Shown piece after piece: positions 2,594 through 63,956 of a DNA stretch of 64,000 bases. Source of the stretch: Promethearchaeota archaeon (GTDB taxonomy: Archaea; Asgardarchaeota; Lokiarchaeia; Sigyniarchaeales; SOKP01); the NCBI GenBank assembly GCA_016839765.1, contig JAEOTP010000043.1, positions 64,001 through 128,000 of the forward strand, given 5' to 3'. The notes under the pieces were generated by a model. The model ran no database searches. It was given only the letters and a program-made list of their open reading frames with translations, and was not told where the DNA came from. How positions within the stretch are numbered: position 1 is the stretch's first letter; the number at the start of each line of letters is the position of its first letter. Made by a program: the position numbers and the translations under genes.

Positions 2594-4201
2594 TTAGGTG
2601 GCAATTTTAAAACCTTTAAACAACCGTAACAAGTACATTATTTCTTCACTACCTTGAATGATTCTTTGTATTCCATATGGAAAGTCTTGGAATTCAACTT
2701 GTTTCCCTTGAGAAACCCATCCTATAATTAACTGTACCATTTCCTTATATTTTTTTACCGTATGCCCTTTGGATTCAATTTCTGAAATAATTTTTTGAGC
2801 TTTCTTTATTTTACCATTTAAAATTGAAGATATTGCTGCTAAAACGTAAGATTGTACGATATGAGAATACCTTATTTTTTTTAGATTGGCTGCCTTGTAA
2901 TAATATTTATAAAGATTATTAATCATTTCATTAAGTAAAAAATCTTTTGCTGTATCAAGTTGCTGGTAAAATTTAATGGATTCTAAAATGAGTGTAGCTG
3001 CTGTATAAAATTCTTTATTCTTTAATCCTTCTTTCGCAATTATATATAATCCCCTAACTATTTGGTTAAAAATGCCAAATCTATTAAATTCTAATCGTCC
3101 TTCGATAGCAATGTCATAAGCATAAAGATAACTCTCAGTTGAATCATTTACATTTTCTGTTTTCCAATAATCGTCACCAGCTTTAACATAATGCTTATAG
3201 GCCATTTCTAAATTATTTAGTTCTTTAAATGTTACCGCTGCATTGAAAAAATTTGTAGCTGCATCTTCATATTCTTCAATTTTTTCTAAGTAATTACCAG
3301 CTAATACAAAGCATGATGCTGATTCAATGAGATTATTATTAATTTCTTGATAACATAAAGCAGCTCCACGATAAAATCGTGCAATTTTTTGAAAATTTTC
3401 CTTACTTTTTTCTAAGTTTTCTGCAAGGTTTATATAGGCTCCAGCTTCCTTTTTTGAGTAATGAATAAATTGATCCTCATCTTCGATTGATTCATATAAT
3501 TTCTTCAAGACTTGACAAATTTGAGCTATTATAAGATTATCATTTTCTCCTTCAATACTTTCATATAATCCATTAAAATACTCAACTGCTTCTTGAAGAA
3601 TATTTTTAGATTTACCTATTTCATCCAATTCTTCATAGCAAAAAGAGATTTGTTGGTAAGAATATGATGATAAATCATAATACTGATATTCTTTTGATAT
3701 ATCTATAGCAGAATCATAATATTTTATAGCTCTCTTAAAGTCATTAATTTTAAGATATAATTCAGCAATATTCTGATAATTTTGAGCAAACTTTCTAGTT
3801 TCATCAAACTCCTTTAAAAGCTTACTTTCTTGTTTAAGAAAATCTATACTATTAATTATGTTCTTTCTTTCTAATTTAGAATCACGCAATTTTTCTGCAT
3901 ATATATCTGCTATTCTTAAATAAATTTCCGCAATTTCATGCAACCTTGCCTGTAATTTGTATGTAATTATTTGATTTTCCCATAGTTTAATTGAAAATTT
4001 ATACAGTTTATTTGAATGATTGTTATTAAAATCTTCCAATAATTCAGCTGCGGTGTATAAAAATTCACCGGCTTCAAAGTAATCTCCAGATCCAACTATT
4101 TCATTAGCATACTCAATAGAATCTTCAATTAATTCTTGAATTTTTCTATCTCTCTCTTTTTGGACTTTTAAAGACTTGATACTTGTTACAAGCTCACTCA
4201 A
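2594..4201 (-). CDS. Alpha-SNAP-like/TPR helical repeat protein
   Basis: Repeated A-x-x-[YF]-x-x-A-[AG] helices (AARFYRGAA-type, AATNFFNAA, AYKHYVKAG); reading frame stays open ~16 codons upstream of the TTG. Confidence 0.6.
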   Translation of the reverse strand: MSELVTSIKSLKVQKERDRKIQELIEDSIEYANEIVGSGDYFEAGEFLYTAAELLEDFNNNHSNKLYKFSIKLWENQIITYKLQARLHEIAEIYLRIADIYAEKLRDSKLERKNIINSIDFLKQESKLLKEFDETRKFAQNYQNIAELYLKINDFKRAIKYYDSAIDISKEYQYYDLSSYSYQQISFCYEELDEIGKSKNILQEAVEYFNGLYESIEGENDNLIIAQICQVLKKLYESIEDEDQFIHYSKKEAGAYINLAENLEKSKENFQKIARFYRGAALCYQEINNNLIESASCFVLAGNYLEKIEEYEDAATNFFNAAVTFKELNNLEMAYKHYVKAGDDYWKTENVNDSTESYLYAYDIAIEGRLEFNRFGIFNQIVRGLYIIAKEGLKNKEFYTAATLILESIKFYQQLDTAKDFLLNEMINNLYKYYYKAANLKKIRYSHIVQSYVLAAISSILNGKIKKAQKIISEIESKGHTVKKYKEMVQLIIGWVSQGKQVEFQDFPYGIQRIIQGSEEIMYLLRLFKGFKIAT

Positions 4202-4535
4202 CTTTTCTAAGTAATCTCCATAATCTATATAGCTATCTTCTCGGAGGATCTATAATCAACCCTTTAGTTTATGCCAAATTCTATGTATAAAAATTAATAT
4301 ACACATAAAAAATACATGGTTTTTTAGAAAAATTTTAAAAGACATATTTGAAATGTCAATTAGCTTATTAATCCTCATATTTCATTTAAGACTATTTTAC
4401 AATTTTGAGATAAAACACTTTTTAAATTATGGAAATAGCTTTAAATATTAAAATAGTCTTATTAATATTAATTAAAATCAAAGTATTGATATAAATAAAA
4501 AATCAAGGTGTGTTAAAATAAAGCAAGTATCAGAA

Positions 4536-4727
4536 TTGTTAGAGACAGGATTGTATGAAACATTTAAGCCTGAGAAGAGAATGGTAGTAAGAGACCTTCT
4601 TAAAGAGTTAAACCTGGAGGGAAAATTTTTTGGAATCCTAGTTAACGGAAAAAAGGCTACCGAAGACACAGTTATTAGGGAAACAGACGAAATTATCATC
4701 CTACCCCACATTGCCGGGGGAAGTTAA
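4536..4727 (+). CDS. MoaD/ThiS/SAMP-like small beta-grasp sulfur carrier
   Basis: ILVNGK...DEIIILPHIAGG-S C-terminus; true start may be ATA at 4518 after AGGTG. Confidence 0.8.
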   Translation: MLETGLYETFKPEKRMVVRDLLKELNLEGKFFGILVNGKKATEDTVIRETDEIIILPHIAGGS

Positions 4728-4808
4728 AATTTATTAATTTTTTTAGAGAATCTCTTTATTTTTAATCGAATTTAGGTTAATAAACCTTCAATTTAATTTT
4801 TAATAAAA

Positions 4809-5789
4809 TTATTTGAGATCGATTTTTAAAAGATCTTGTGCTAAAATTGTATTAGGAAAAATTTCTTGAGCGTCTTTTAACAATTTTTCAGCATCTTCTT
4901 GATATCTTGAGGAAATATGAGTTAATATTAGCCGTTTTGCGTTCATTCTCAAGGCCATATTTGCGGCATCAACCGAAGTTGAATGTTTCTTTTCTTTAGC
5001 AATGTGATCTAATTCCTTTGAAAAGGTAGCTTCATGTATCAATATGTCTGAACCCTCACCAATACCTATTAACGAATCACAAGGAACTGTATCTCCTGAA
5101 TAAGTCACTTTTCTACCTGGACGTTTAGGGCCAACAATTTTCTCCTTAAACGGGTCTATTTTTTTTCCTTTAAAATCTATAATTTCGCCTTCTTGTAATT
5201 TCTTCCAAAGGTGACTTGCTGGGATTCCTAGTTCTTGTGCTCTCTCAGGATTAAATTTACCACTACGAGGTTTTTCTATAAACGAATAAGCAAATGTTAA
5301 TACTGAATGTTCAACTAAAGTATATTTTAGTATGTATCTTTTACCTTCAAAAATAATATTATTTTCAATTTCAATTTCTTTAGAAGGCTTTTCTGAATCT
5401 AAACCTTTGAATTCAATTAATTTTTTTTGCAGATGATCAATTTCAATAATCTTAATTGGATAATCTGCTTTTAATCCAAGAATTTTTCTATGCAAATACA
5501 AATATAAGTAAAGATTTCTGGGACCATAAATGGTGAGCGGAGCAGTCCTTTCAATTAAACCAAAGCGGAATAGAAGACCCGGAAGTCCTATTATATGATC
5601 CCCATGAAAATGAGAAATTAAAATATTTAGTGGTTTGTTAAATTTTAAACCCGCTTGATTTAAACGCCGTTGAAGATCTTCACCACAATCAAAGAGGATT
5701 AATTCATTTTTATATTTAAGAGCAATTGAGGGCAAGTTCCTTTCTTTGATGGGGATTGCTGCAGAAGAACCTAAAATAATTATTTCCAT
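4809..5789 (-). CDS. rnz: Ribonuclease Z
   Basis: SHFHGDH motif, GPKRPGRKVTYSGDT, HEATF, HST, LTHISSRY. Confidence 0.95.
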   Translation of the reverse strand: MEIIILGSSAAIPIKERNLPSIALKYKNELILFDCGEDLQRRLNQAGLKFNKPLNILISHFHGDHIIGLPGLLFRFGLIERTAPLTIYGPRNLYLYLYLHRKILGLKADYPIKIIEIDHLQKKLIEFKGLDSEKPSKEIEIENNIIFEGKRYILKYTLVEHSVLTFAYSFIEKPRSGKFNPERAQELGIPASHLWKKLQEGEIIDFKGKKIDPFKEKIVGPKRPGRKVTYSGDTVPCDSLIGIGEGSDILIHEATFSKELDHIAKEKKHSTSVDAANMALRMNAKRLILTHISSRYQEDAEKLLKDAQEIFPNTILAQDLLKIDLK

Positions 5790-5795
5790 ATTTCA

Positions 5796-7115
5796 TTATA
5801 TAGTTTTTCTTAGCCGATCAATTTCTAGCCTTTGCTCAATATTCTGTTTGGTCAAGTCTTCAATAATTGTTTTTAATTCTTCAATTCTTAATATAAGCTT
5901 AGGGTTTTCAACTTCTTGGGTCTGAATATGAGTTTGGGCTGCTATGCTTAATTTATTTATATCATTCATTAATTCTGAAACTTTTTTATCCTTTAAACTT
6001 ATTTGATTTTCAAGGTCTTCATAACTTCTTTTAATCCTAATTGCTTCATTTTTTATTGTCGTAATTTCCTCATCTTTGGTCTTTAGGGCATTTTTCGCTT
6101 CATCTAATTGCTTTTGTAAAAAACTAGCCATTTCTCTCTGAATTTTTAAATTACTATCAATATTACTTTGAGGAACTGCTTCACTAGGCACTTTTTGATT
6201 TCCAGATGCCTTTAATTGTTCTTGAAGTATTGAGATTTGGGATTTAGACTTATTTAACTTAGTTTTTAACTCTTCGACAACCTGTTTAAGTGTTGGAGAT
6301 TGAGATGGGTCGTCCACTAAGCTTCTTTGTTCTCTTAATTCCTGAATTTCTGTTTCTTTATTCTCTAATTTAATTTTAAATTCCGCAATTTTATTTTCAT
6401 AGTCTTTAATTTTATTTTTAAACTTACTTTTATCTTTATAAGATTCTAATTTTTGTTTTAACTCATTATTTTCCCTTTTAGTCTTATTTAGTTTATTTTG
6501 TAGTTCTTCCAAAAGATTTTTGGAAATATTAGTACTGGTTACTGCTGCACTATCGTTGACAACTATTTCTGAAACGGATTCGTTTTTTTCGAGTTTTCGA
6601 TTTGATTCTGTCAATTGCAATTTTAAAGATTCAATTTCTTCTTCTTTTTCTCGTAAAACTTCGCTGAAATCACTGCTTCCAATATTCTTAAGTTTTAATT
6701 TCCGTATTAAAGATTCTTGTTTATTTATTTTATCCTGAAGTTCTTTTACTAAAATATTGAGGGGTGCTTTTTCTCTAAGATCCTCAACTCGAATAACAGA
6801 AGTAGATTTTTCTAGCAATTTTATATTATCAAGTTTTTTTTGGGCTTCAAGTTTATCTTTTCTTAAGAAGCCCATTCTATCCTTTAGTTCTCTAATCTCC
6901 CTATTCTTAGCATCTAATTCACTTTGTAATTTTGATTCTTTTACTTTTTTACTTTTCTTTTTAGAGGGTTCTTCTGACATAAGTTCATGCAATTTCATTA
7001 TTTCTTCTTCAAGATTGTCAATTTTATCGACATATCCTATGATTTCATTATCTTTTTTGTCAAGATCCTTCTTTAGTTCGTCAAGTTTCTTAAGTAATTT
7101 TTCTTCTTCTGTCAT
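5796..7115 (-). CDS. Long coiled-coil protein of unknown function
   Basis: Heptad-rich K/E/L composition over 439 aa, broken by short S/P linkers. Confidence 0.7.
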   Translation of the reverse strand: MTEEEKLLKKLDELKKDLDKKDNEIIGYVDKIDNLEEEIMKLHELMSEEPSKKKSKKVKESKLQSELDAKNREIRELKDRMGFLRKDKLEAQKKLDNIKLLEKSTSVIRVEDLREKAPLNILVKELQDKINKQESLIRKLKLKNIGSSDFSEVLREKEEEIESLKLQLTESNRKLEKNESVSEIVVNDSAAVTSTNISKNLLEELQNKLNKTKRENNELKQKLESYKDKSKFKNKIKDYENKIAEFKIKLENKETEIQELREQRSLVDDPSQSPTLKQVVEELKTKLNKSKSQISILQEQLKASGNQKVPSEAVPQSNIDSNLKIQREMASFLQKQLDEAKNALKTKDEEITTIKNEAIRIKRSYEDLENQISLKDKKVSELMNDINKLSIAAQTHIQTQEVENPKLILRIEELKTIIEDLTKQNIEQRLEIDRLRKTI

Positions 7116-7190: not shown

Positions 7191-9104
7191 TCAATAGATT
7201 TCAAAATCTTTAATAGAAAAATTCTTTTTAATTTTCTTTATTACGGGAAACAGACCTAAGAAATTAAGTAAAAGAAATACACCCAATAATATACCCATTA
7301 TTATAAAAGGTATTGAGATATGTGGTAAATGAACTCTATCGAATAAAACGATGGAATTTAAGATCATTCCTATCCCTAAACTTAATATTATTGATGGTAT
7401 TAATACATACAGTGTTTCTAAGAATAGAATTCTCCTTAAGGAGCGGAATTTTGAGCCAATAGCCCTCATGATTAAGAAATCTTTTGCTTTTTCGATAACA
7501 CCTCCTTTATGATAGTTATATACTGAAAGAACAGAAATTACTGCCATAATTACGATTAAAAATGTAGGATAGAGAGAGATATTTGTAATATAAGCTAAAT
7601 TGGTATCAAATGTTAAGTCAAGATTGATGAATGTAAACTCAGACCCTAGAGTACTATTTAGAATTGTTTCTAAATTAGATTTTAACGTAATATAAGAACC
7701 AGATTCGTATTTTAGCAATAATAAATTAATGTTTTCATTACTCAAATGTAATTCGTTCCTAAATATTTCAATATCTATATATCCAGTATAACCACAATAA
7801 AAACTATCGATCACTACTCCGCATGGATGAAAAGAATGGTTTAAATCTTCTAATAACATGCTTTGATCAAGTGCATAATCAAAAAAATTATAAGCTAGCC
7901 CATCTCCAATAACCATATAAACATGGGAATCACTGTCATTAAAAAATCTACCTTCTATTTCAAAATCATGTATAAATTTTGTGGAATTTATGCCCACTAT
8001 AGGAAATTTTCCACTTCTTTGCTGGCCTACACTAATACAAGTCCCATCCTCATAACAATGAGTCCCATATAATTCTTCAGCGTCGCTAAAAAAAATTAGT
8101 CTTTCATCGATTAGATCAATTTCTGTTAAATTATATAACTCCTCAATGTCTGATGTATTAAATAAATATTCAGGTTTTAAAAAATCAATACTATTTGAAT
8201 CAACAATAATATTTGGGTTTGAGAACATATTATACATCAACGTGTAATTAGATATCACATCCTTATGGCCAATTGCAACAATATTATCACCTTGAGATTT
8301 ATTTACCCATTCTCTCGAGGACGATCCTAAAACTAGAATTCCTAATGCTAATGTGAAAATTATGAGTGTGATGGTTGAAAACACAAAAAGATATCGCTTA
8401 AATTCTCCCTTTCTTCTTAAAGTGTTAACAATAGATATTTTAAAGTTATATCCAATTTTAGATAACCATTTGGGAATAAAGGTTAACCCTTTTCTTGCAT
8501 CATAATCATAAGGAATCTCTTTAGAAAAACTTTTAATGATTTTTTGATTCCCAAATTTTCTTAACATGTAACCAGGAATGATAAAAATACCACCTAGACA
8601 TGAAATAAACAAGATAAGTGTATAGAAATAATCAAATTTAAAAAATACTGAAGCTCCAAGAGAGGACGAGATTAATGCAAAGATTCCAAAAGAGAGTAAT
8701 CCGATAATAAAACCGATTATGAATCCGATTAGAAAGATTAGATAAATTTCAGTCAAATAATATCCATATAACTTTCTAGGAATAGATCCTAAGGCTCTCA
8801 TTATAGCAATATCTCGCTTTTTAGATACAATTAAAGTACTACTAATAATAATTACAATGATAAATGCTAATCCTATCATTAAACTTACAATTAAAATGCT
8901 GTAATTAGTGTAAATAATACTAATACCACCAGAGAAGAAATATGGATTTTCGAATTCATAAATAATAAAGCTGTTTAATCCTGTAGAGGTTGTTAAATAA
9001 ATTAAAAAAGTTGTAGCTGCTATAACTAAAATAACCATAAATAAATATGGAAATGATATTTCTCTCTTCCTGTAGAAATCCTTTAGTGCAAAATCAAGGG
9101 ACAT
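7191..9104 (-). CDS. ABC transporter permease, FtsX/MacB family (two FtsX domains)
   Basis: Two RDIAIMRALG / KDFLIMRAIG motifs, multiple TM segments, large extracellular loop. Confidence 0.85.
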   Translation of the reverse strand: MSLDFALKDFYRKREISFPYLFMVILVIAATTFLIYLTTSTGLNSFIIYEFENPYFFSGGISIIYTNYSILIVSLMIGLAFIIVIIISSTLIVSKKRDIAIMRALGSIPRKLYGYYLTEIYLIFLIGFIIGFIIGLLSFGIFALISSSLGASVFFKFDYFYTLILFISCLGGIFIIPGYMLRKFGNQKIIKSFSKEIPYDYDARKGLTFIPKWLSKIGYNFKISIVNTLRRKGEFKRYLFVFSTITLIIFTLALGILVLGSSSREWVNKSQGDNIVAIGHKDVISNYTLMYNMFSNPNIIVDSNSIDFLKPEYLFNTSDIEELYNLTEIDLIDERLIFFSDAEELYGTHCYEDGTCISVGQQRSGKFPIVGINSTKFIHDFEIEGRFFNDSDSHVYMVIGDGLAYNFFDYALDQSMLLEDLNHSFHPCGVVIDSFYCGYTGYIDIEIFRNELHLSNENINLLLLKYESGSYITLKSNLETILNSTLGSEFTFINLDLTFDTNLAYITNISLYPTFLIVIMAVISVLSVYNYHKGGVIEKAKDFLIMRAIGSKFRSLRRILFLETLYVLIPSIILSLGIGMILNSIVLFDRVHLPHISIPFIIMGILLGVFLLLNFLGLFPVIKKIKKNFSIKDFEIY

Positions 9105-11862: not shown

Positions 11863-13053
11863 GTGAGCATATACTTGGATAACCAGGCAGCTAAACCTGT
11901 GGATGAGAGAGTTATTTCAGAAATGTTGCCATATTTTAGAGATAAATTTGCGAATCCTGCTTCTTTACATGCTGATGGTGATATAGCCACTGACATTTTA
12001 GAGAAGTCAAGGGAGATGGTGGCAGATTTTATAAATGCTCCGAATCCATCAGATATTATTTTTACTTCAGGAGCAACAGAGTCAAATAATTTAGCAATAA
12101 TCGGTGCTGCTAACTTTTATAAAAGAAAAGGAAATCATATAATTATTTCTGAGATAGAACATATTTCTATTTTGAATATTGCAAAATATTTGGAAAAGCA
12201 AGGATTTAAAATAAGTAGAATCCCCGTTGACAGATATGGTATAATACGTTTGGATAAATTAGAGAATTTGATCAATGATAGTACAATTTTAATATCTGTT
12301 GCATCAGCTAGTAATGAAGTGGGTTCTATCCAACCAATTGAAGAAATAAGTAAAATTGCAACTAAAAACAAGATTCTTTTTCATACAGATGCAATTCCTA
12401 GTGAAAGTACTTTATCAATTGATGTCCAAAGTGTTCCTATTGATATGATTACTTTATCTTCTAATGATATTTATGGACCACGTGGAGTTGGAGCCCTATA
12501 TTTGAAAAAAGGAGTGAGAGTTAATCCAATTATTATAGGAGGAGGTCAAGAAAGAGGTTTCAGATCAGGTTCTGAAAATATCCCCGGTATCGTTGGATTT
12601 GCTAAAGCTGCTGGTATTATGAAGAATGAAATGCCAAAAGAGGTCGAATATCTTAAAGGGTTAAGAGATAAATTAATCAGTGGAGTGCTTGAAATAATAC
12701 CAAATTCCCATTTAAATGGTCATCCAGAAAAACGGCTGGCCAATAATGCTCATTTTAGATTCGATTATATCGAAGGAGAATCTTTAATCTTGCAATTAAA
12801 AGAACATAATGTCGCTGCCGCTACGGGATCTGCATGTTCTTCTAAAACTTTAGAACCTTCACATACTTTAATAGCAATGGGACTACTCCATGAAGAGGCA
12901 CATGGAAGCTTGTTAGTCTCCTTAGGAAGAACAACAAAACTAACTGACATTAACAAAATAATTGAGGTATTACCCGGAGCAGTAAAAAGATTAAGAATAA
13001 TGTCTCCTTTAACTCCTCCTGAATTATTAAAAAAATATAAAGAGGTGAAATAA
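11863..13053 (+). CDS. iscS: IscS/NifS-like cysteine desulfurase homologue with Lys->Asp at the PLP site
   Basis: IYLDN, FTSGATESNN, GGGQERGFRSGSEN, GSACSS; SSND in place of SxHK. Confidence 0.9.
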   Translation: MSIYLDNQAAKPVDERVISEMLPYFRDKFANPASLHADGDIATDILEKSREMVADFINAPNPSDIIFTSGATESNNLAIIGAANFYKRKGNHIIISEIEHISILNIAKYLEKQGFKISRIPVDRYGIIRLDKLENLINDSTILISVASASNEVGSIQPIEEISKIATKNKILFHTDAIPSESTLSIDVQSVPIDMITLSSNDIYGPRGVGALYLKKGVRVNPIIIGGGQERGFRSGSENIPGIVGFAKAAGIMKNEMPKEVEYLKGLRDKLISGVLEIIPNSHLNGHPEKRLANNAHFRFDYIEGESLILQLKEHNVAAATGSACSSKTLEPSHTLIAMGLLHEEAHGSLLVSLGRTTKLTDINKIIEVLPGAVKRLRIMSPLTPPELLKKYKEVK

Positions 13054-60636: not shown

Positions 60637-61740
60637 TTAATATTTTGAAGGAGTTTTAGATTTGATTTTATATTTTGGTATCTCTTGAACTTTTTTCAAT
60701 TCTTTCTCAAAATCTCTTTTTTCTCTAAGGAACCTCTCTTTATCTCTTTCTAATTTTTCTCTTTCTCTTCTAATAGCATTTTTTTCAGTGTCTATCATCG
60801 ACTTTTCTTTTACTAAATGCTTATAATCATTATTTAATCTTTTTTGTTTATCTTCCAAATCACGAATCTTGCGTTCTAATGAATAATAAGTATCTTCCGC
60901 TTTAGGAACTTTCCTATTTAGCTCTTTTAATCTTGTTTCTTGTTGTTGTTTCTTTTTTTCCAAATTTCTTACATCATTTTCAATTTTATCTCTAAAGTTT
61001 TCCAAATCTTCTTTTTTTTTATCAATTTCACGAGCTTTAAGATTTAGATCTTTTTTTTTAATACGATTTTTTTCTTTTTCATCTTTTAATTTTCTTTTTT
61101 CATCATCAATCCGGTTTTTTTCATCAAAAATGTTTTTTCTTAGATCATTGATTTCTTTATTTAAATTATCCCTTTCTTTTGAAAGATGTTTGATTTCATT
61201 TCTCAACTCCATTAATTCATTTTCTAATTTTTCAATTGTTCTCTCTAATGCATTTTCTCTTCTTTCCATTCCAGGTATTTTGGTTTTAATCTCTTTAACA
61301 CGAACTTCTGCTCTTGCTTTTTCTCTTTCTAAATATTTTTTCTCACTTTCTAAAGCGTCTTTTAGTCTATCTAACTTTTCTTGATATTTATCTAGGTCGG
61401 CATTTTTTTGATCTAACTCTCTTTCTTTTAAACTTAGATTATTTCTATGTTGCTTTATTCCATTTTTCATTCTTTCTAATTCACTTTTTAACTTTTCACG
61501 TTGGTTTAGAAGATTTTTGACTTCAAGTTCTTTCTCTTTTCTCTTTTTTTCAAGTTCTTTTATATTATCTTGATACCCTTCAAGTTTTTTAATAACCTTT
61601 TCCCAATCGCTTTTTTCTCTGTTTAACTTTATCCTTTCTTCCTTTATCTTTTTAAGTAGTCTTGTATCTTGAATAATTTCGATTTCTTCTTCTGGCGTTT
61701 TCTCTCGAATTTGATACTTAGGAATTGGTTTATCATTCAT
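60637..61740 (-). CDS. Continuous coiled-coil rod protein with matching terminal motifs
   Basis: ~320 aa of K/E/R/L heptads; IPKYQIREKTP at the N-terminus and IPKYKIKSKTP at the C-terminus. Confidence 0.75.
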   Translation of the reverse strand: MNDKPIPKYQIREKTPEEEIEIIQDTRLLKKIKEERIKLNREKSDWEKVIKKLEGYQDNIKELEKKRKEKELEVKNLLNQREKLKSELERMKNGIKQHRNNLSLKERELDQKNADLDKYQEKLDRLKDALESEKKYLEREKARAEVRVKEIKTKIPGMERRENALERTIEKLENELMELRNEIKHLSKERDNLNKEINDLRKNIFDEKNRIDDEKRKLKDEKEKNRIKKKDLNLKAREIDKKKEDLENFRDKIENDVRNLEKKKQQQETRLKELNRKVPKAEDTYYSLERKIRDLEDKQKRLNNDYKHLVKEKSMIDTEKNAIRREREKLERDKERFLREKRDFEKELKKVQEIPKYKIKSKTPSKY

Positions 61741-61944: not shown

Positions 61945-62373
61945 ATGGAGTTTGATGAAGAATTTGATGAAGAGTTTGATGATGAATTTGATGAAGAACT
62001 TGATGAAGAACTTGATGAAGAATTAGAAGAACCTTCTGCAAAAACTCCAGCGGAAGAGGTTAAAGCTAAAACTCCAGCGGAAGAGGTTAAAGCTAAAACT
62101 CCAGCAGTTAAAGCTTTTTCGGCAGGAAAAAAGATTTCAGTTTATTTTATGTCGACAATAGGTCCTGGTGAAAAAAAGCAAAAATTACTCATAAACACAG
62201 GAAACAGCGTTGGGGATATAAAAGAGACTGTTGCGAATTTATTTGGTTTAGATCCTGCTGATTTTCATTTATCTTCAGGTGGAATTACCATGGATGAGAG
62301 TTCAAATGTAAGTGAATATAACGTGAATGATGGAGAAGATATACTATTAATTCCAGCAAGTACTGCTGGTTAA
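61945..62373 (+). CDS. Ubiquitin-fold protein with acidic repeat N-terminus and C-terminal Gly
   Basis: Beta-grasp pattern (VGDIKETVANLFGL...FHLSSGGITMD...YNVNDGEDILLIP), ends ASTAG; AGGTG RBS. Confidence 0.75.
   Translation: MEFDEEFDEEFDDEFDEELDEELDEELEEPSAKTPAEEVKAKTPAEEVKAKTPAVKAFSAGKKISVYFMSTIGPGEKKQKLLINTGNSVGDIKETVANLFGLDPADFHLSSGGITMDESSNVSEYNVNDGEDILLIPASTAG
61948..62115 (+). repeat. Coding tandem repeats: 12-bp x7 (E[FL][DE][DE]) and 27-bp x2 plus partial (KTPAEEVKA)
   Basis: Directly visible: 61948-62031 and 62041-62115. Confidence 0.9.
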
Positions 62374-62390
62374 AAAAAATCATTATCCTA

Positions 62391-63200
62391 TTAGTTTTTC
62401 TTTTTTAAATTTTTTTCTTTTCTTGATGGAATCAGAGCAATTTCGTCATCATCATCAATAGCATAATCTTTTATTTGTGAGTTTTCATGCAATAATATTC
62501 CTCCAGAGGATAAAAGAAAATCTTCTAAATTATAGTCAAATAATGTTCCAATTCTTTCTTTAACACTAAATATTAATTCTGTTGTATCAATTATAATGAT
62601 TTTTGTTTTTTCACCTGGCTCAACTAATGATCTTATATAAACTCGTATCTGGTCTTCCTTTTCAATAAAATTTGTAGGAGGTGTATAAATTATCCCCTCG
62701 TCAGTCTTATCCCTGTTTTTCAACATATTTTCGATTAATATTTTTCTCTCGTGTTTATCAAAATACAACATTTCTCTGATAAACATTATTTTATCCATTT
62801 TTGATAATTCTAAAAGATTTATTTTTTCTAATTCTTCCCCACTAAACACAGAAAAAATATATTTATTAATTATTTCCATATTATCATATGATTCATTTGA
62901 TTCAACATAATCTTCTATTGAAGGCATGACATCAATATAATCCTCAATAAGATCAATAGGTTTTTTTTTAATCGATTTTTGTTTTTTGACATATTTTTTC
63001 TCGCTTTTCCTCTCATCCTCACTACTCGCAGATTGAATAATTGTATAGATAGTACTGGTGGATAGTACTGAGACACTACCGATAACTAGAAAGAGAAATA
63101 AAGGAATACTTTCTATATGGAATAAGAAAAAAGCCATATAGATAATTACAAAAATAATATAAAGGGTTATAATACTTAAAACTCTATTTTTTTTCTTCAT
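62391..63200 (-). CDS. Membrane-anchored protein with C-terminal ubiquitin-fold domain (no terminal Gly)
   Basis: Two N-terminal TMs; C-terminal domain aligns with 61945-62373 (PGEK, LSSGGI, LIP); ends KKKN. Confidence 0.72.
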   Translation of the reverse strand: MKKKNRVLSIITLYIIFVIIYMAFFLFHIESIPLFLFLVIGSVSVLSTSTIYTIIQSASSEDERKSEKKYVKKQKSIKKKPIDLIEDYIDVMPSIEDYVESNESYDNMEIINKYIFSVFSGEELEKINLLELSKMDKIMFIREMLYFDKHERKILIENMLKNRDKTDEGIIYTPPTNFIEKEDQIRVYIRSLVEPGEKTKIIIIDTTELIFSVKERIGTLFDYNLEDFLLSSGGILLHENSQIKDYAIDDDDEIALIPSRKEKNLKKKN

Positions 63201-63284: not shown

Positions 63285-63956
63285 TCATACACCTTGCATT
63301 TTTTTTCTAACTTTAGAATATTTATCTGTATCTAATTGGAATGTAATTCTTTTTTTTTCTTTTTCAATTTTTATTAATTTCAGTTTTTTTAAAACATATA
63401 AATATTTTTTAATTATATTATGATTCTTTTTTAAGTTAGTTGCTATTTCTGTAATTTTTAATGCTTTATCTTCCTTTTTCATAAAATTAATTATTTCTTG
63501 AACAATAGCCAAATTTAAATAATAATAGAGCTCGTCAAGTTCTGGATTTGAATCGTATTTATAAATAATTCTTCGATTGTTAATTTTTTTTGATCTAACA
63601 AATCGAAATTTTTCCAAACAAGATAGATGCCATAAAGCTTGATTACTTCCGATATTTAGAGCATTCATTATTTCATTAATATTTGACGGATTTTTCTTTA
63701 TGTAATTAAAGATTTCATTCCTTACTGGATGTTCAATAATATTATTTTTCATCAATTTTGTTCCAGGAATGATCATTCTCTTTTTAATAAGATTTTTAAT
63801 GGTAATTTCAATCCTAGCTTTATTGATAAAGGGATTTGATTTTACCCTATTACTAATAAATACAACAATGTTTTGTATTGAAAAGAATGGTTTTTTTTCT
63901 AAATATTCTTTTACTAATTCAAGAATAATAGATTCGACATTATTCATAGAGTTCAT
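63285..63956 (-). CDS. Double winged-helix (ArsR-like) transcriptional regulator
   Basis: RNEIFNYIKKNP...ALWHLSCLEKF; second HTH ITEIATNL...KKYLYVLKKL. Confidence 0.75.
   Translation of the reverse strand: MNSMNNVESIILELVKEYLEKKPFFSIQNIVVFISNRVKSNPFINKARIEITIKNLIKKRMIIPGTKLMKNNIIEHPVRNEIFNYIKKNPSNINEIMNALNIGSNQALWHLSCLEKFRFVRSKKINNRRIIYKYDSNPELDELYYYLNLAIVQEIINFMKKEDKALKITEIATNLKKNHNIIKKYLYVLKKLKLIKIEKEKKRITFQLDTDKYSKVRKKMQGV

Follow-up and report, generated by a model that had tools for sequence, protein, structure and literature searches.

Near the downstream end of a 64,000-nucleotide stretch of a lokiarchaeial genome (bases 64001-128000 of contig 17 of the source genome, ~29% G+C; hereafter, the window), two convergent genes encode a free ubiquitin-like (Ubl) protein, Ubl1, and a membrane-anchored copy of it, TM-Ubl (TM, transmembrane). 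We conclude that the two proteins are paralogues within the Asgard family of ubiquitin-type modifiers that end in Ala-Gly. The explanation that we favor, and to which we give an even chance of being right as a whole, is that conjugatable tags coexist here with an anchored decoy that would act as an anti-regulator of the tandem winged-helix (wHTH) protein encoded directly upstream of TM-Ubl. What was established directly is that the two are paralogues, which folds, termini, and gene order they have, how they are distributed among lineages, and that the MID domain of TM-Ubl recurs in proteins encoded beside wHTH proteins; we infer conjugation, binding of MID to the wHTH protein, the reader of the decoy, and the direction of feedback.

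The genes of Ubl1 and TM-Ubl lie 17 bp apart from stop codon to stop codon, and their products aligned without gaps over 100 residues, of which 34% were identical and 56% positive, a match that chance would not produce (BLASTP, E 3e-18). A first-pass annotation of this DNA had described two convergent, paralogous open reading frames (ORFs); its coordinates were exact, the peptides it quoted were present, and the alignment bears out the paralogy. When relatives of Ubl1 were sought among 5.8 billion proteins, 818 were found; those listed were 60-98% identical and, where named by their sources, were ubiquitin-like domain proteins of Asgard archaea. TM-Ubl had 410 relatives, nearly all of ~264 aa and, if named, called "hypothetical" or "ubiquitin-like protein." The Pfam ubiquitin model (PF00240) scored 24.2 bits on Ubl1, just below the cut-off of 25.4, and 21.0 bits on TM-Ubl, also under it, and matched 25 of 25 Ubl1-family members (best E 6.6e-6). 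All three PF00240-type domains in the source genome fell within this one locus, which also encodes a second modifier, Ubl2.

Models were made of single proteins (AF2 for Ubl1), and folds were matched with Foldseek and with VIA, a Foldseek-independent aligner; by these models and matches, both domains are beta-grasp. The Ubl1 core is ordered strand-strand-helix-strand-short helix-strand in the AF2 model. Foldseek placed Caldiarchaeum ubiquitin (6fno/6fnn/6fj7) at the top of its matches, with a probability of 1.00 to Caldiarchaeum ubiquitin and to ubiquitin, and VIA gave Z scores of 14.0-11.1 to ISG15, Dsk2, ubiquitin, Hub1, SUMO, FAT10, and Rad23. For the TM-Ubl domain, VIA gave Z scores of 13.3-11.4 to ISG15, ubiquitin, SUMO, Dsk2, and the Herpud2 UBLs, the compact matches having a root-mean-square deviation of 1.4-1.8 Å over 73-77 residues.

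The two copies differ at their C-termini. The HMMER alignment of the Ubl1 family to ubiquitin runs without gaps over ubiquitin residues 14-65 and, extended by eye to residue 76, puts Gly142 of Ubl1 at ubiquitin Gly76. Among the 25 aligned Ubl1 homologues, the C-terminal motif is IPAS(T/V/I)AG, in which the third-from-last residue alone varies, leaving four of the five tail residues invariant. The terminal Gly is kept in all 25; most stop there, and three carry four residues beyond it. Where present in 24 further loci, which included genomes of four other families, modifiers all ended in Ala-Gly or in Ala-Gly plus 1-3 residues, and such extensions of 1-4 residues resemble those of pro-ubiquitins. 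Lack of conservation of this Gly had been named as an outcome that would refute the first-pass annotation, and it did not occur. Ubl1 has no Lys or Arg beyond K93, and trypsin would leave a remnant of 49 residues. By contrast, none of the 23 TM-Ubl tails that were read ends in Ala-Gly; they are basic and variable, extend 3-11 residues past LIP, and carry a net charge of +5 in the source genome, while one of them does end in Gly (...DRG), although in a register other than that of the modifiers. Thus an exposed, conserved C-terminal Gly at the Gly76 position is found in Ubl1 and not in TM-Ubl, as expected from the earlier description of one conjugatable-looking copy and one that is not. E1 (activating) and E2 (conjugating) enzymes with catalytic residues are encoded 2.3-4 kb from Ubl1, and Ubl1 is very likely a genuine tag that can be conjugated, as is Ubl2.

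Ubl1 also bears an N-terminal arm, described in the first-pass annotation as disordered, acidic, and repetitive. This description held: residues 1-60 were modeled with a predicted local distance difference test score (pLDDT) of 42-57, residues 1-29 have a net charge of -21, and the coding sequence contains 12-bp and 27-bp repeats. Across all 25 homologues, the net charge of the arm ranges from -9 to -28. Homologues have a single unit where Ubl1 has the 27-bp repeat, with K51 and P53 invariant, and the identity of the repeat copies marks the duplication as recent. Separately, Ala-Gly-ended Ubl domains were found fused to the C-termini of larger proteins in two loci (L024, G128 contig 10, and L025, G307 contig 4). 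One fused protein has 229 aa with an unknown N-terminal domain, and the other, of at least 583 aa, contains a P-loop region (GASGSGKT). Such proteins would either be conjugated whole or have their Ubl domain cut off.

Alignment gave TM-Ubl the layout of hairpin, basic linker, conserved helical stretch, Ubl domain, and basic tail. The model has a pair of hydrophobic helices at residues 2-26 and 32-57, and the Kyte-Doolittle value is >1.6 across residues 4-55, in agreement with the two TM segments noted earlier; the charge of the tail likewise agrees; the linker is disordered in the model, and helices occupy residues 109-162. With charges of +4 ahead of TM1 and +5 past TM2, and of -1 in the loop of five residues between them, both ends are predicted by the positive-inside rule to be cytoplasmic. 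TM-Ubl is very probably not conjugatable and would be anchored by its hairpin, presenting linker, MID domain, beta-grasp domain, and tail to the cytoplasm, a topology read from charge. Despite the overall identity of only 34%, TM-Ubl shares with the modifiers a PGEK loop, an SSGG turn, and a LIP strand, which correspond in ubiquitin to the Leu8 loop, Ile44-Gly47, and Val70-Leu71. TM2 (63033-63101 in the window) is the best-conserved segment of TM-Ubl, with a top-residue frequency of 0.89, and is Ser/Thr-rich (GSVxVLSTSTIYT), which hints at a specific intramembrane contact or a cleavage site.

The partnership of TM-Ubl with the wHTH protein was the most constant feature of the locus. This protein matched Pfam HTH_5 and further wHTH families over two separate stretches. 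In every one of the 87 genomes, source genome included, for which coordinates of both genes were listed, an orthologue (56-100% identical) directly preceded TM-Ubl on its own strand, at a distance of ~90-130 bp. Weaker wHTH paralogues are widespread, and the orthologue has the same range as TM-Ubl. While the first-pass annotation was very probably right in seeing TM-Ubl as an anchored, non-conjugatable copy, it overlooked both the MID domain and this fixed partnership, which together point to a regulatory role for TM-Ubl.

Searches for the identity of MID gave nothing in Pfam (E<=5), in a profile search of the PDB (E<=10), or in the ESM Atlas. An exhaustive search with the 96-residue middle part of TM-Ubl yielded 28 clusters among 1.8 billion representatives. 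Matches other than TM-Ubl itself fell at the extreme C-termini of beta-propeller, NosD/beta-helix, or laminin-G proteins that have one internal TM helix before the match, an architecture like that of surface sensors whose tail is cytoplasmic. TM-Ubl is the sole MID protein of the source genome. When the genome matches of one such protein were crossed with those of wHTH, five loci from five genomes encoded a MID protein and a wHTH paralogue on one contig, and in four of these, the two genes directly adjoined each other on the same strand. Even in a biased sample (see below), immediate adjacency on contigs of 29-790 kb would not be expected by chance. Adjacency of a regulator gene and a membrane-protein gene is therefore repeated in paralogous pairs (87/87 genomes for TM-Ubl and the five loci for other MID proteins).

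Several MID relatives have features of their own. The 677-aa membrane protein beside a wHTH paralogue in L058 (G223 contig 89, 2159-4189) has tandem MID copies at residues 523-592 and 602-673. Among the relatives P0256, P0262, P0265, P0266, and P0267, several contain a conserved Cys-rich, zinc-finger-like module (C...CPxC...YCxRC...CWxC) between the TM helix and MID. P0252, which joins the front half of a TM-Ubl to an end resembling bacterial sigma-70 region 4, is probably a chimeric assembly.

The setting of the pair agrees with the membrane-linked ubiquitin-like system that had been proposed for it. The stretch L001 runs past the window end (window coordinate = L001 coordinate + 60000), and 0.2-4.5 kb past the edge, it encodes, in this order, Ubl2, E1, E2, a JAMM protease, and a multi-pass membrane protein with a RING-like end; zinc-ribbon and RING models matched this Cys-rich end at sub-threshold scores only. 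Gene order was read in 17 loci from four genera (16 others plus the source genome). The full order consists of a nucleotidyltransferase (NTase) gene and a coiled-coil (CC) gene on one strand, Ubl1 divergent from them, TM-Ubl and wHTH convergent on Ubl1, and then Ubl2, E1, E2, JAMM, and RING on the strand of Ubl1. It was complete or nearly so in 11/17 loci (10/16 excluding the source genome), among them L011, whose first modifier is closer to Ubl2 than to Ubl1; the remaining six loci were split, interrupted, or at a contig end. The pair of wHTH followed by TM-Ubl was kept in all 17.

Comparison of 400 Asgard genomes confined full-length TM-Ubl to four genera (g1, g12, g11, and g5) of one family, unlike the modifier, which is present across the phylum. 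The submitters' taxon names on Ubl1 and TM-Ubl homologues (Hod-, Thor-, Heimdall-, and Hermodarchaeota) conflict with this one-family range. A sister genus and two other families carry a simpler cluster, in which CC is divergent from a single Ubl followed by E1, E2, JAMM, and RING, with no wHTH or TM-Ubl. Since the cluster outside the clade has a single modifier, the set of Ubl1, TM-Ubl, and wHTH is a lineage-specific addition, and the pair arose when the tag was duplicated in this lineage and a wHTH/TM-Ubl cassette was inserted. A domain tree (unrooted, 83 columns) placed TM-Ubl in one long-branched clade (100/100) separate from all modifiers, which barely diverged; because the tree is unrooted and short, it cannot name Ubl1 or Ubl2 as the donor of TM-Ubl. 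Ubl1 and TM-Ubl are more loosely adjacent than TM-Ubl and wHTH: two g11 loci and one g12 locus have no adjoining Ubl1, and insertions of 1.8 kb and ~9 kb separate the two genes in two g1 loci. As it is absent in g11, this adjacency is not obligatory.

Clusters of a Ubl, a ThiF-type E1, a UBC E2, a JAMM/MPN protease, and a RING-type protein are likewise found in known archaeal ubiquitin operons, such as the Caldiarchaeum subterraneum operon of ubiquitin, E1, E2, small RING protein, and Rpn11 (PMC5654768, PMC6043591) and the Helarchaeial E1-E2-RING cascade (bioRxiv 10.1101/2023.07.25.550441). The Caldiarchaeum modifier is the best Foldseek match of Ubl1, and some modifiers of the Ubl1 family share with those of the operons short, pro-ubiquitin-like C-terminal extensions. 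The operons differ in that their modifiers end in Gly-Gly, whereas Ubl1 ends in Ala-Gly and adds a 40-60 residue acidic and Lys-Thr-Pro arm; the RING-like protein here is a multi-pass membrane protein; and the operons contain neither a wHTH/TM-Ubl cassette nor the two modifiers of the TM-Ubl clade. The archaeal ubiquitin-like literature that we covered, too limited to prove absence, describes neither a membrane-anchored Ubl paralogue nor an archaeal MID domain.

Table 1. Positions of the paired ubiquitin-like genes, their parts, and the surrounding cluster (window coordinates unless L001 is given)
Feature	Position	Strand	Remarks
Coiled-coil protein (CC), divergent from Ubl1, conserved cluster flank	60637..61740	-	367 aa
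Ubl1, ubiquitin-type modifier ending Ala-Gly then stop	61945..62373	+	ORF, 142 aa
Ubl1 acidic arm, (F/L)-D-E-E repeats, residues 1-29	61945..62031	+	12-bp tandem repeat x 6.2
Ubl1 Lys-Thr-Pro arm, residues 30-60	62032..62124	+	27-bp x 2.4 repeat, 100% matches
Ubl1 beta-grasp core, residues 61-137	62125..62355	+	AF2 pLDDT 83-93
Ubl1 flexible tail A-S-T-A-G, ends at ubiquitin G76 position	62356..62370	+	Alignment to ubiquitin
TM-Ubl, membrane-anchored Ubl protein, very probably non-conjugatable	62391..63200	-	ORF, 269 aa
TM-Ubl basic tail SRKEKNLKKKN, no Gly	62394..62426	-	Sequence
TM-Ubl beta-grasp domain, residues 184-258	62427..62651	-	pLDDT 71-90
MID domain, residues 85-165, helical	62706..62948	-	17 invariant positions
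TM hairpin, residues 8-56, predicted N-in/C-in	63033..63179	-	Helices, hydropathy, flanking charges
31-nt element with perfect palindrome TTCCATTGGAA	63250..63280	.	Between wHTH stop and TM-Ubl start
Tandem winged-helix (wHTH) protein, directly upstream of TM-Ubl	63285..63956	-	223 aa
Ubl2	L001, past window end		108 aa, ends Ala-Gly; Pfam ubiquitin 28.2 bits, above cut-off 25.4
E1	L001, past window end		411 aa, ThiF 203 bits
E2	L001, past window end		175 aa, UQ_con 90 bits; HPN...Cys in translation
JAMM/MPN protease	L001, past window end		268 aa; HxHx7Sx2D in translation
Multi-pass membrane protein with Cys-rich RING-like end	L001, past window end		383 aa

We propose the following scheme for how such a system may work. 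Ubl1 would be made mature or nearly so, activated at Gly142 by the canonical Uba1/2/3-like E1, and handed to the UBC-type E2; the membrane protein with the RING-like finger would handle the tag, and the JAMM protease would remove or process it. In the simplest reading, MID would keep the co-transcribed tandem wHTH protein at the membrane, as an anti-sigma factor does a sigma factor. For MID paralogues, the input would be the extracellular domain; TM-Ubl has no extracellular part, and so its input would be the cytoplasmic decoy Ubl. The decoy keeps PGEK, SSGG, and LIP and could therefore be readable by whatever reads the free tags, be it their E1, their E2, JAMM, or a partner of the unfoldase type. 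Transcription of the cluster would in this way respond to the state of the tagging system. That TM-Ubl is a membrane anti-regulator of the wHTH protein with the decoy as input seems to us to have close to an even chance. We offer only tentatively, and with some doubt, the further step in which a reader or enzyme free of real tag engages the decoy and frees the wHTH protein, so that the ubiquitin-like system would control its own genes.

The nearest regulatory model is the pairing of a membrane anti-sigma factor with an extracytoplasmic function (ECF) sigma factor, as in RseA-sigmaE and RsgI-SigI. There, as proposed for TM-Ubl and wHTH, two genes encode a regulator and a membrane protein that would hold the regulator through a cytoplasmic domain, and, as with MID and wHTH, paralogous pairs occur with varied sensor domains. 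The present pair differs in that its regulator is a tandem winged-helix protein and not a sigma factor, MID has no detectable anti-sigma similarity, and the presumed sensor of TM-Ubl is cytoplasmic (the decoy Ubl) rather than extracellular.

Several observations weigh against this scheme. E1, E2, and JAMM of g11 are encoded elsewhere, and there was no Ubl1 in the stretch examined around its TM-Ubl. The five MID-wHTH loci were chosen because their contigs were named in both match lists and so form a biased sample, and in the fifth of them, the MID and wHTH genes are 5 kb apart within a same-strand four-gene cluster. The MID part of the TM-Ubl model has moderate confidence (pLDDT 51-84). Of the motifs that TM-Ubl has in common with the modifiers, some consist of core residues, which do not necessarily imply a shared partner, and the argument from shared motifs for shared readers is weak. 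Finally, the "Ufm1 homologues" of a published study, considered below, may be members of the Ubl1 family.

An unlikely possibility is that TM-Ubl is an adaptor of the MUB/UBL3 type with no regulator role, the decoy docking the E2 (at its backside) or the E1 at the membrane and either concentrating charged E2 near the membrane RING-like protein or blocking E2 charging; this is the idea in the first-pass annotation that the anchored copy "recruits or competes" for enzymes, minus the Ufm1 label. In plants, MUB attaches to the backside of the E2, keeps the E1 from reaching it, and holds E2s at the plasma membrane (PMC4996978), and the membrane RING E3 MARCH1 requires UBL3 (PMC9001657). MUB and UBL3 resemble TM-Ubl as ubiquitin folds that are never conjugated and are fixed at the cytoplasmic membrane face, and their action on conjugation enzymes or a membrane RING E3 is a further apparent likeness. 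An anchored, non-conjugatable Ubl inside an E1-E2-RING cluster, sharing PGEK, SSGG, and LIP with the modifiers, is what an adaptor would predict, and in g11, where the RING-like protein lacks a TM part yet TM-Ubl is kept, TM-Ubl could supply the membrane link. However, an adaptor leaves unexplained the conserved MID domain, the wHTH gene upstream in 87/87 genomes, and the occurrence of MID on unrelated membrane proteins beside wHTH paralogues, and TM-Ubl persists in g11 although E1 and E2 are encoded elsewhere. The anchor of MUB is a prenyl group at the C-terminus; that of TM-Ubl is a hairpin of two helices at the N-terminus, and its tail contains no Cys of the CAAX type. TM-Ubl has in addition the MID domain and a DNA-binding-type partner, and the likeness seen is one of fold.

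HERP/HERPUD and yeast Usa1 carry a UBL on a hairpin-anchored membrane protein and work with a multi-pass RING E3. By analogy, TM-Ubl might be a scaffold whose anchored Ubl brings the proteasome, a Cdc48-type unfoldase, or JAMM to the RING-like protein so that membrane proteins are extracted and degraded, a role that we judge quite improbable. The hairpin-anchored UBL domain and the multi-pass RING setting are shared; the fold of TM-Ubl is tied with UBLs that dock on proteasome receptors or serve in endoplasmic reticulum-associated degradation (Dsk2, Rad23, Herpud2, BAT3, and UBL4A), and the multi-pass RING-like protein is kept in the cluster across families. Outside the clade, however, the same membrane RING-like protein occurs where TM-Ubl is lacking, which makes TM-Ubl no core component of that machine; the cluster contains no unfoldase or proteasome gene; and the linkage to wHTH is left unexplained. 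HERP and Usa1 also differ in having their UBL at the N-terminus, no MID domain, and no link to a transcription regulator. Both an adaptor of the MUB/UBL3 type and a scaffold of the HERP/Usa1 type are compatible with TM-Ubl as an anti-regulator.

Less probable still is that TM-Ubl is itself tagged, as a substrate or as the primer of a chain. Ubl1 or Ubl2 would be attached to its linker and tail, both rich in Lys, to give membrane-anchored chains or to mark TM-Ubl for turnover. Conserved K68, K69, and K75 in the linker and R260 and K261 in the tail, together with ligase genes close by, are consistent with this, but the tails vary in length and sequence, and nothing singles out these lysines. Tagging of TM-Ubl would also fit within the anti-regulator scheme as a release step and hence is no true alternative to it.

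The pair had initially been labeled Ufm1-like, but a true Ufm1-type pathway, with Ubl1 as an archaeal Ufm1 and TM-Ubl as its anchored partner, is barely credible. Its attractions are the single terminal Gly of Ubl1, the beta-grasp fold and membrane link that the two systems share, and structure-based "Ufm1 homologues" reported from nine Asgard clades in a 2026 paper whose accessible part does not identify the proteins (PMC12962969). The IP-x4-G spacing first taken as a Ufm1 mark equals V70-L71-x4-G76 of ubiquitin and so does not discriminate; the tail register of Ubl1 is that of ubiquitin. Six-frame searches of the source genome (96% complete) found no match at E<=1 to Pfam Ufm1 (PF03671) or to UFC1 (PF08694), all three E2-like genes matching UQ_con instead. 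Pfam Ufm1 likewise had no match at E<=0.001 in the 400 Asgard genomes and matched 0/25 Ubl1-family members even at E<=10. The family profile searched against PDB sequences retrieved ubiquitin, designed ubiquitins, Caldiarchaeum ubiquitin, Hub1, and NEDD8, with no Ufm1, and Ufm1 was not among the best 50 structural matches by either Foldseek or VIA, although a family may match without standing among those 50. In place of the Uba5- and Ufc1-like genes that the first-pass annotation had suggested looking for, there are enzymes of the ubiquitin/SUMO/NEDD8 type: the cluster E1 matched Uba1, SAE2, and UBA3 in the PDB at ~1e-38 (UBA3 over residues 36-334) and Uba5 at 7e-16, and the closest relatives of the E2 are canonical UBCs. 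Tested with Pfam models, the PDB profile, the relatives of E1 and E2, and two fold searches, the Ufm1 reading was rejected at the level of sequence and enzymes. This corrects a mislabel, and the published claim of an "Asgard Ufm1" needs to be checked against the Ubl1 family.

Eukaryotes release certain membrane-bound transcription factors (Spt23/Mga2 and Nrf1) in a ubiquitin-dependent manner, and if the anti-regulator scheme is true, TM-Ubl and wHTH would be a prokaryotic counterpart. MID would then mark a wider, undescribed family of Asgard transmembrane signaling pairs (sensor-TM-MID plus tandem wHTH), and its pairing with wHTH would amount, if it is confirmed, to a novel kind of transmembrane signaling module in archaea. 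One Lokiarchaeial lineage has expanded a basic cluster of tag, E1, E2, JAMM, and membrane RING-like protein by two additions, a second tag and a non-conjugatable anchored copy coupled to a DNA-binding-type protein. MUB/UBL3, HERP, UBL-UBA shuttles, and ubiquitin-controlled membrane-bound transcription factors are late elaborations in eukaryotes; the two-gene archaeal version could offer a simple, tractable model, its proteins being small and expressible.

The 31-nt palindromic element between wHTH and TM-Ubl has a 94% complementary inverted copy 75-105 bp upstream of Ubl2 (L001 4121-4151), an arrangement that fits common control of TM-Ubl and Ubl2. Upstream of Ubl1, only the partial CTTCCATT was found (L001 1861-1868). 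A promoter and terminator scan returned fewer sites than in shuffled sequences; its models are bacterial and uninformative for an archaeon.

Other conjugation genes were seen beyond the cluster. On contig 23 of the source genome (L026, 5000-18000 of that contig), there are a second E2 (5000-5509, 169 aa), which shares 38% identity with that of the cluster, and another E1 (7455-9029, 524 aa), whose adenylation domain shows 47% identity across its first 152 aligned residues. They adjoin a 1270-aa repeat-rich coiled-coil protein, with no Ubl gene seen nearby. As a pair for Ubl1, these enzymes showed no correlation with it, the E1 paralogue occurring also in single-modifier genomes and in g11. A third, compact operon on contig 33 (L027, 157000-167000 of that contig, at 3628-5904) encodes a JAMM protein of 163 aa, an E1 of 291 aa, and an E2-like protein of 186 aa, which scored 41.6 bits with UQ_con. 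An ORF of 87 aa convergent with them, terminating in ...IGG then YSY, has no Pfam ubiquitin match and looks like a Gly-Gly pro-Ubl.

The cluster itself varies in other genomes. In g11 (L010, G170, 12134-12802), E1, E2, and JAMM are all missing from the locus examined, with the E1 on another contig, and the RING-like protein is soluble, with 222 aa, a basic Thr/Arg/Ser-rich low-complexity region, and a zinc finger in place of a multi-pass part. In the closed genome G189 (L005, 11920-12201), the cluster E1 matched over residues 2-95 only, with no more of it within 7.7 kb; the gene may be broken, or it may be interrupted by an insertion or in the manner of an intein.

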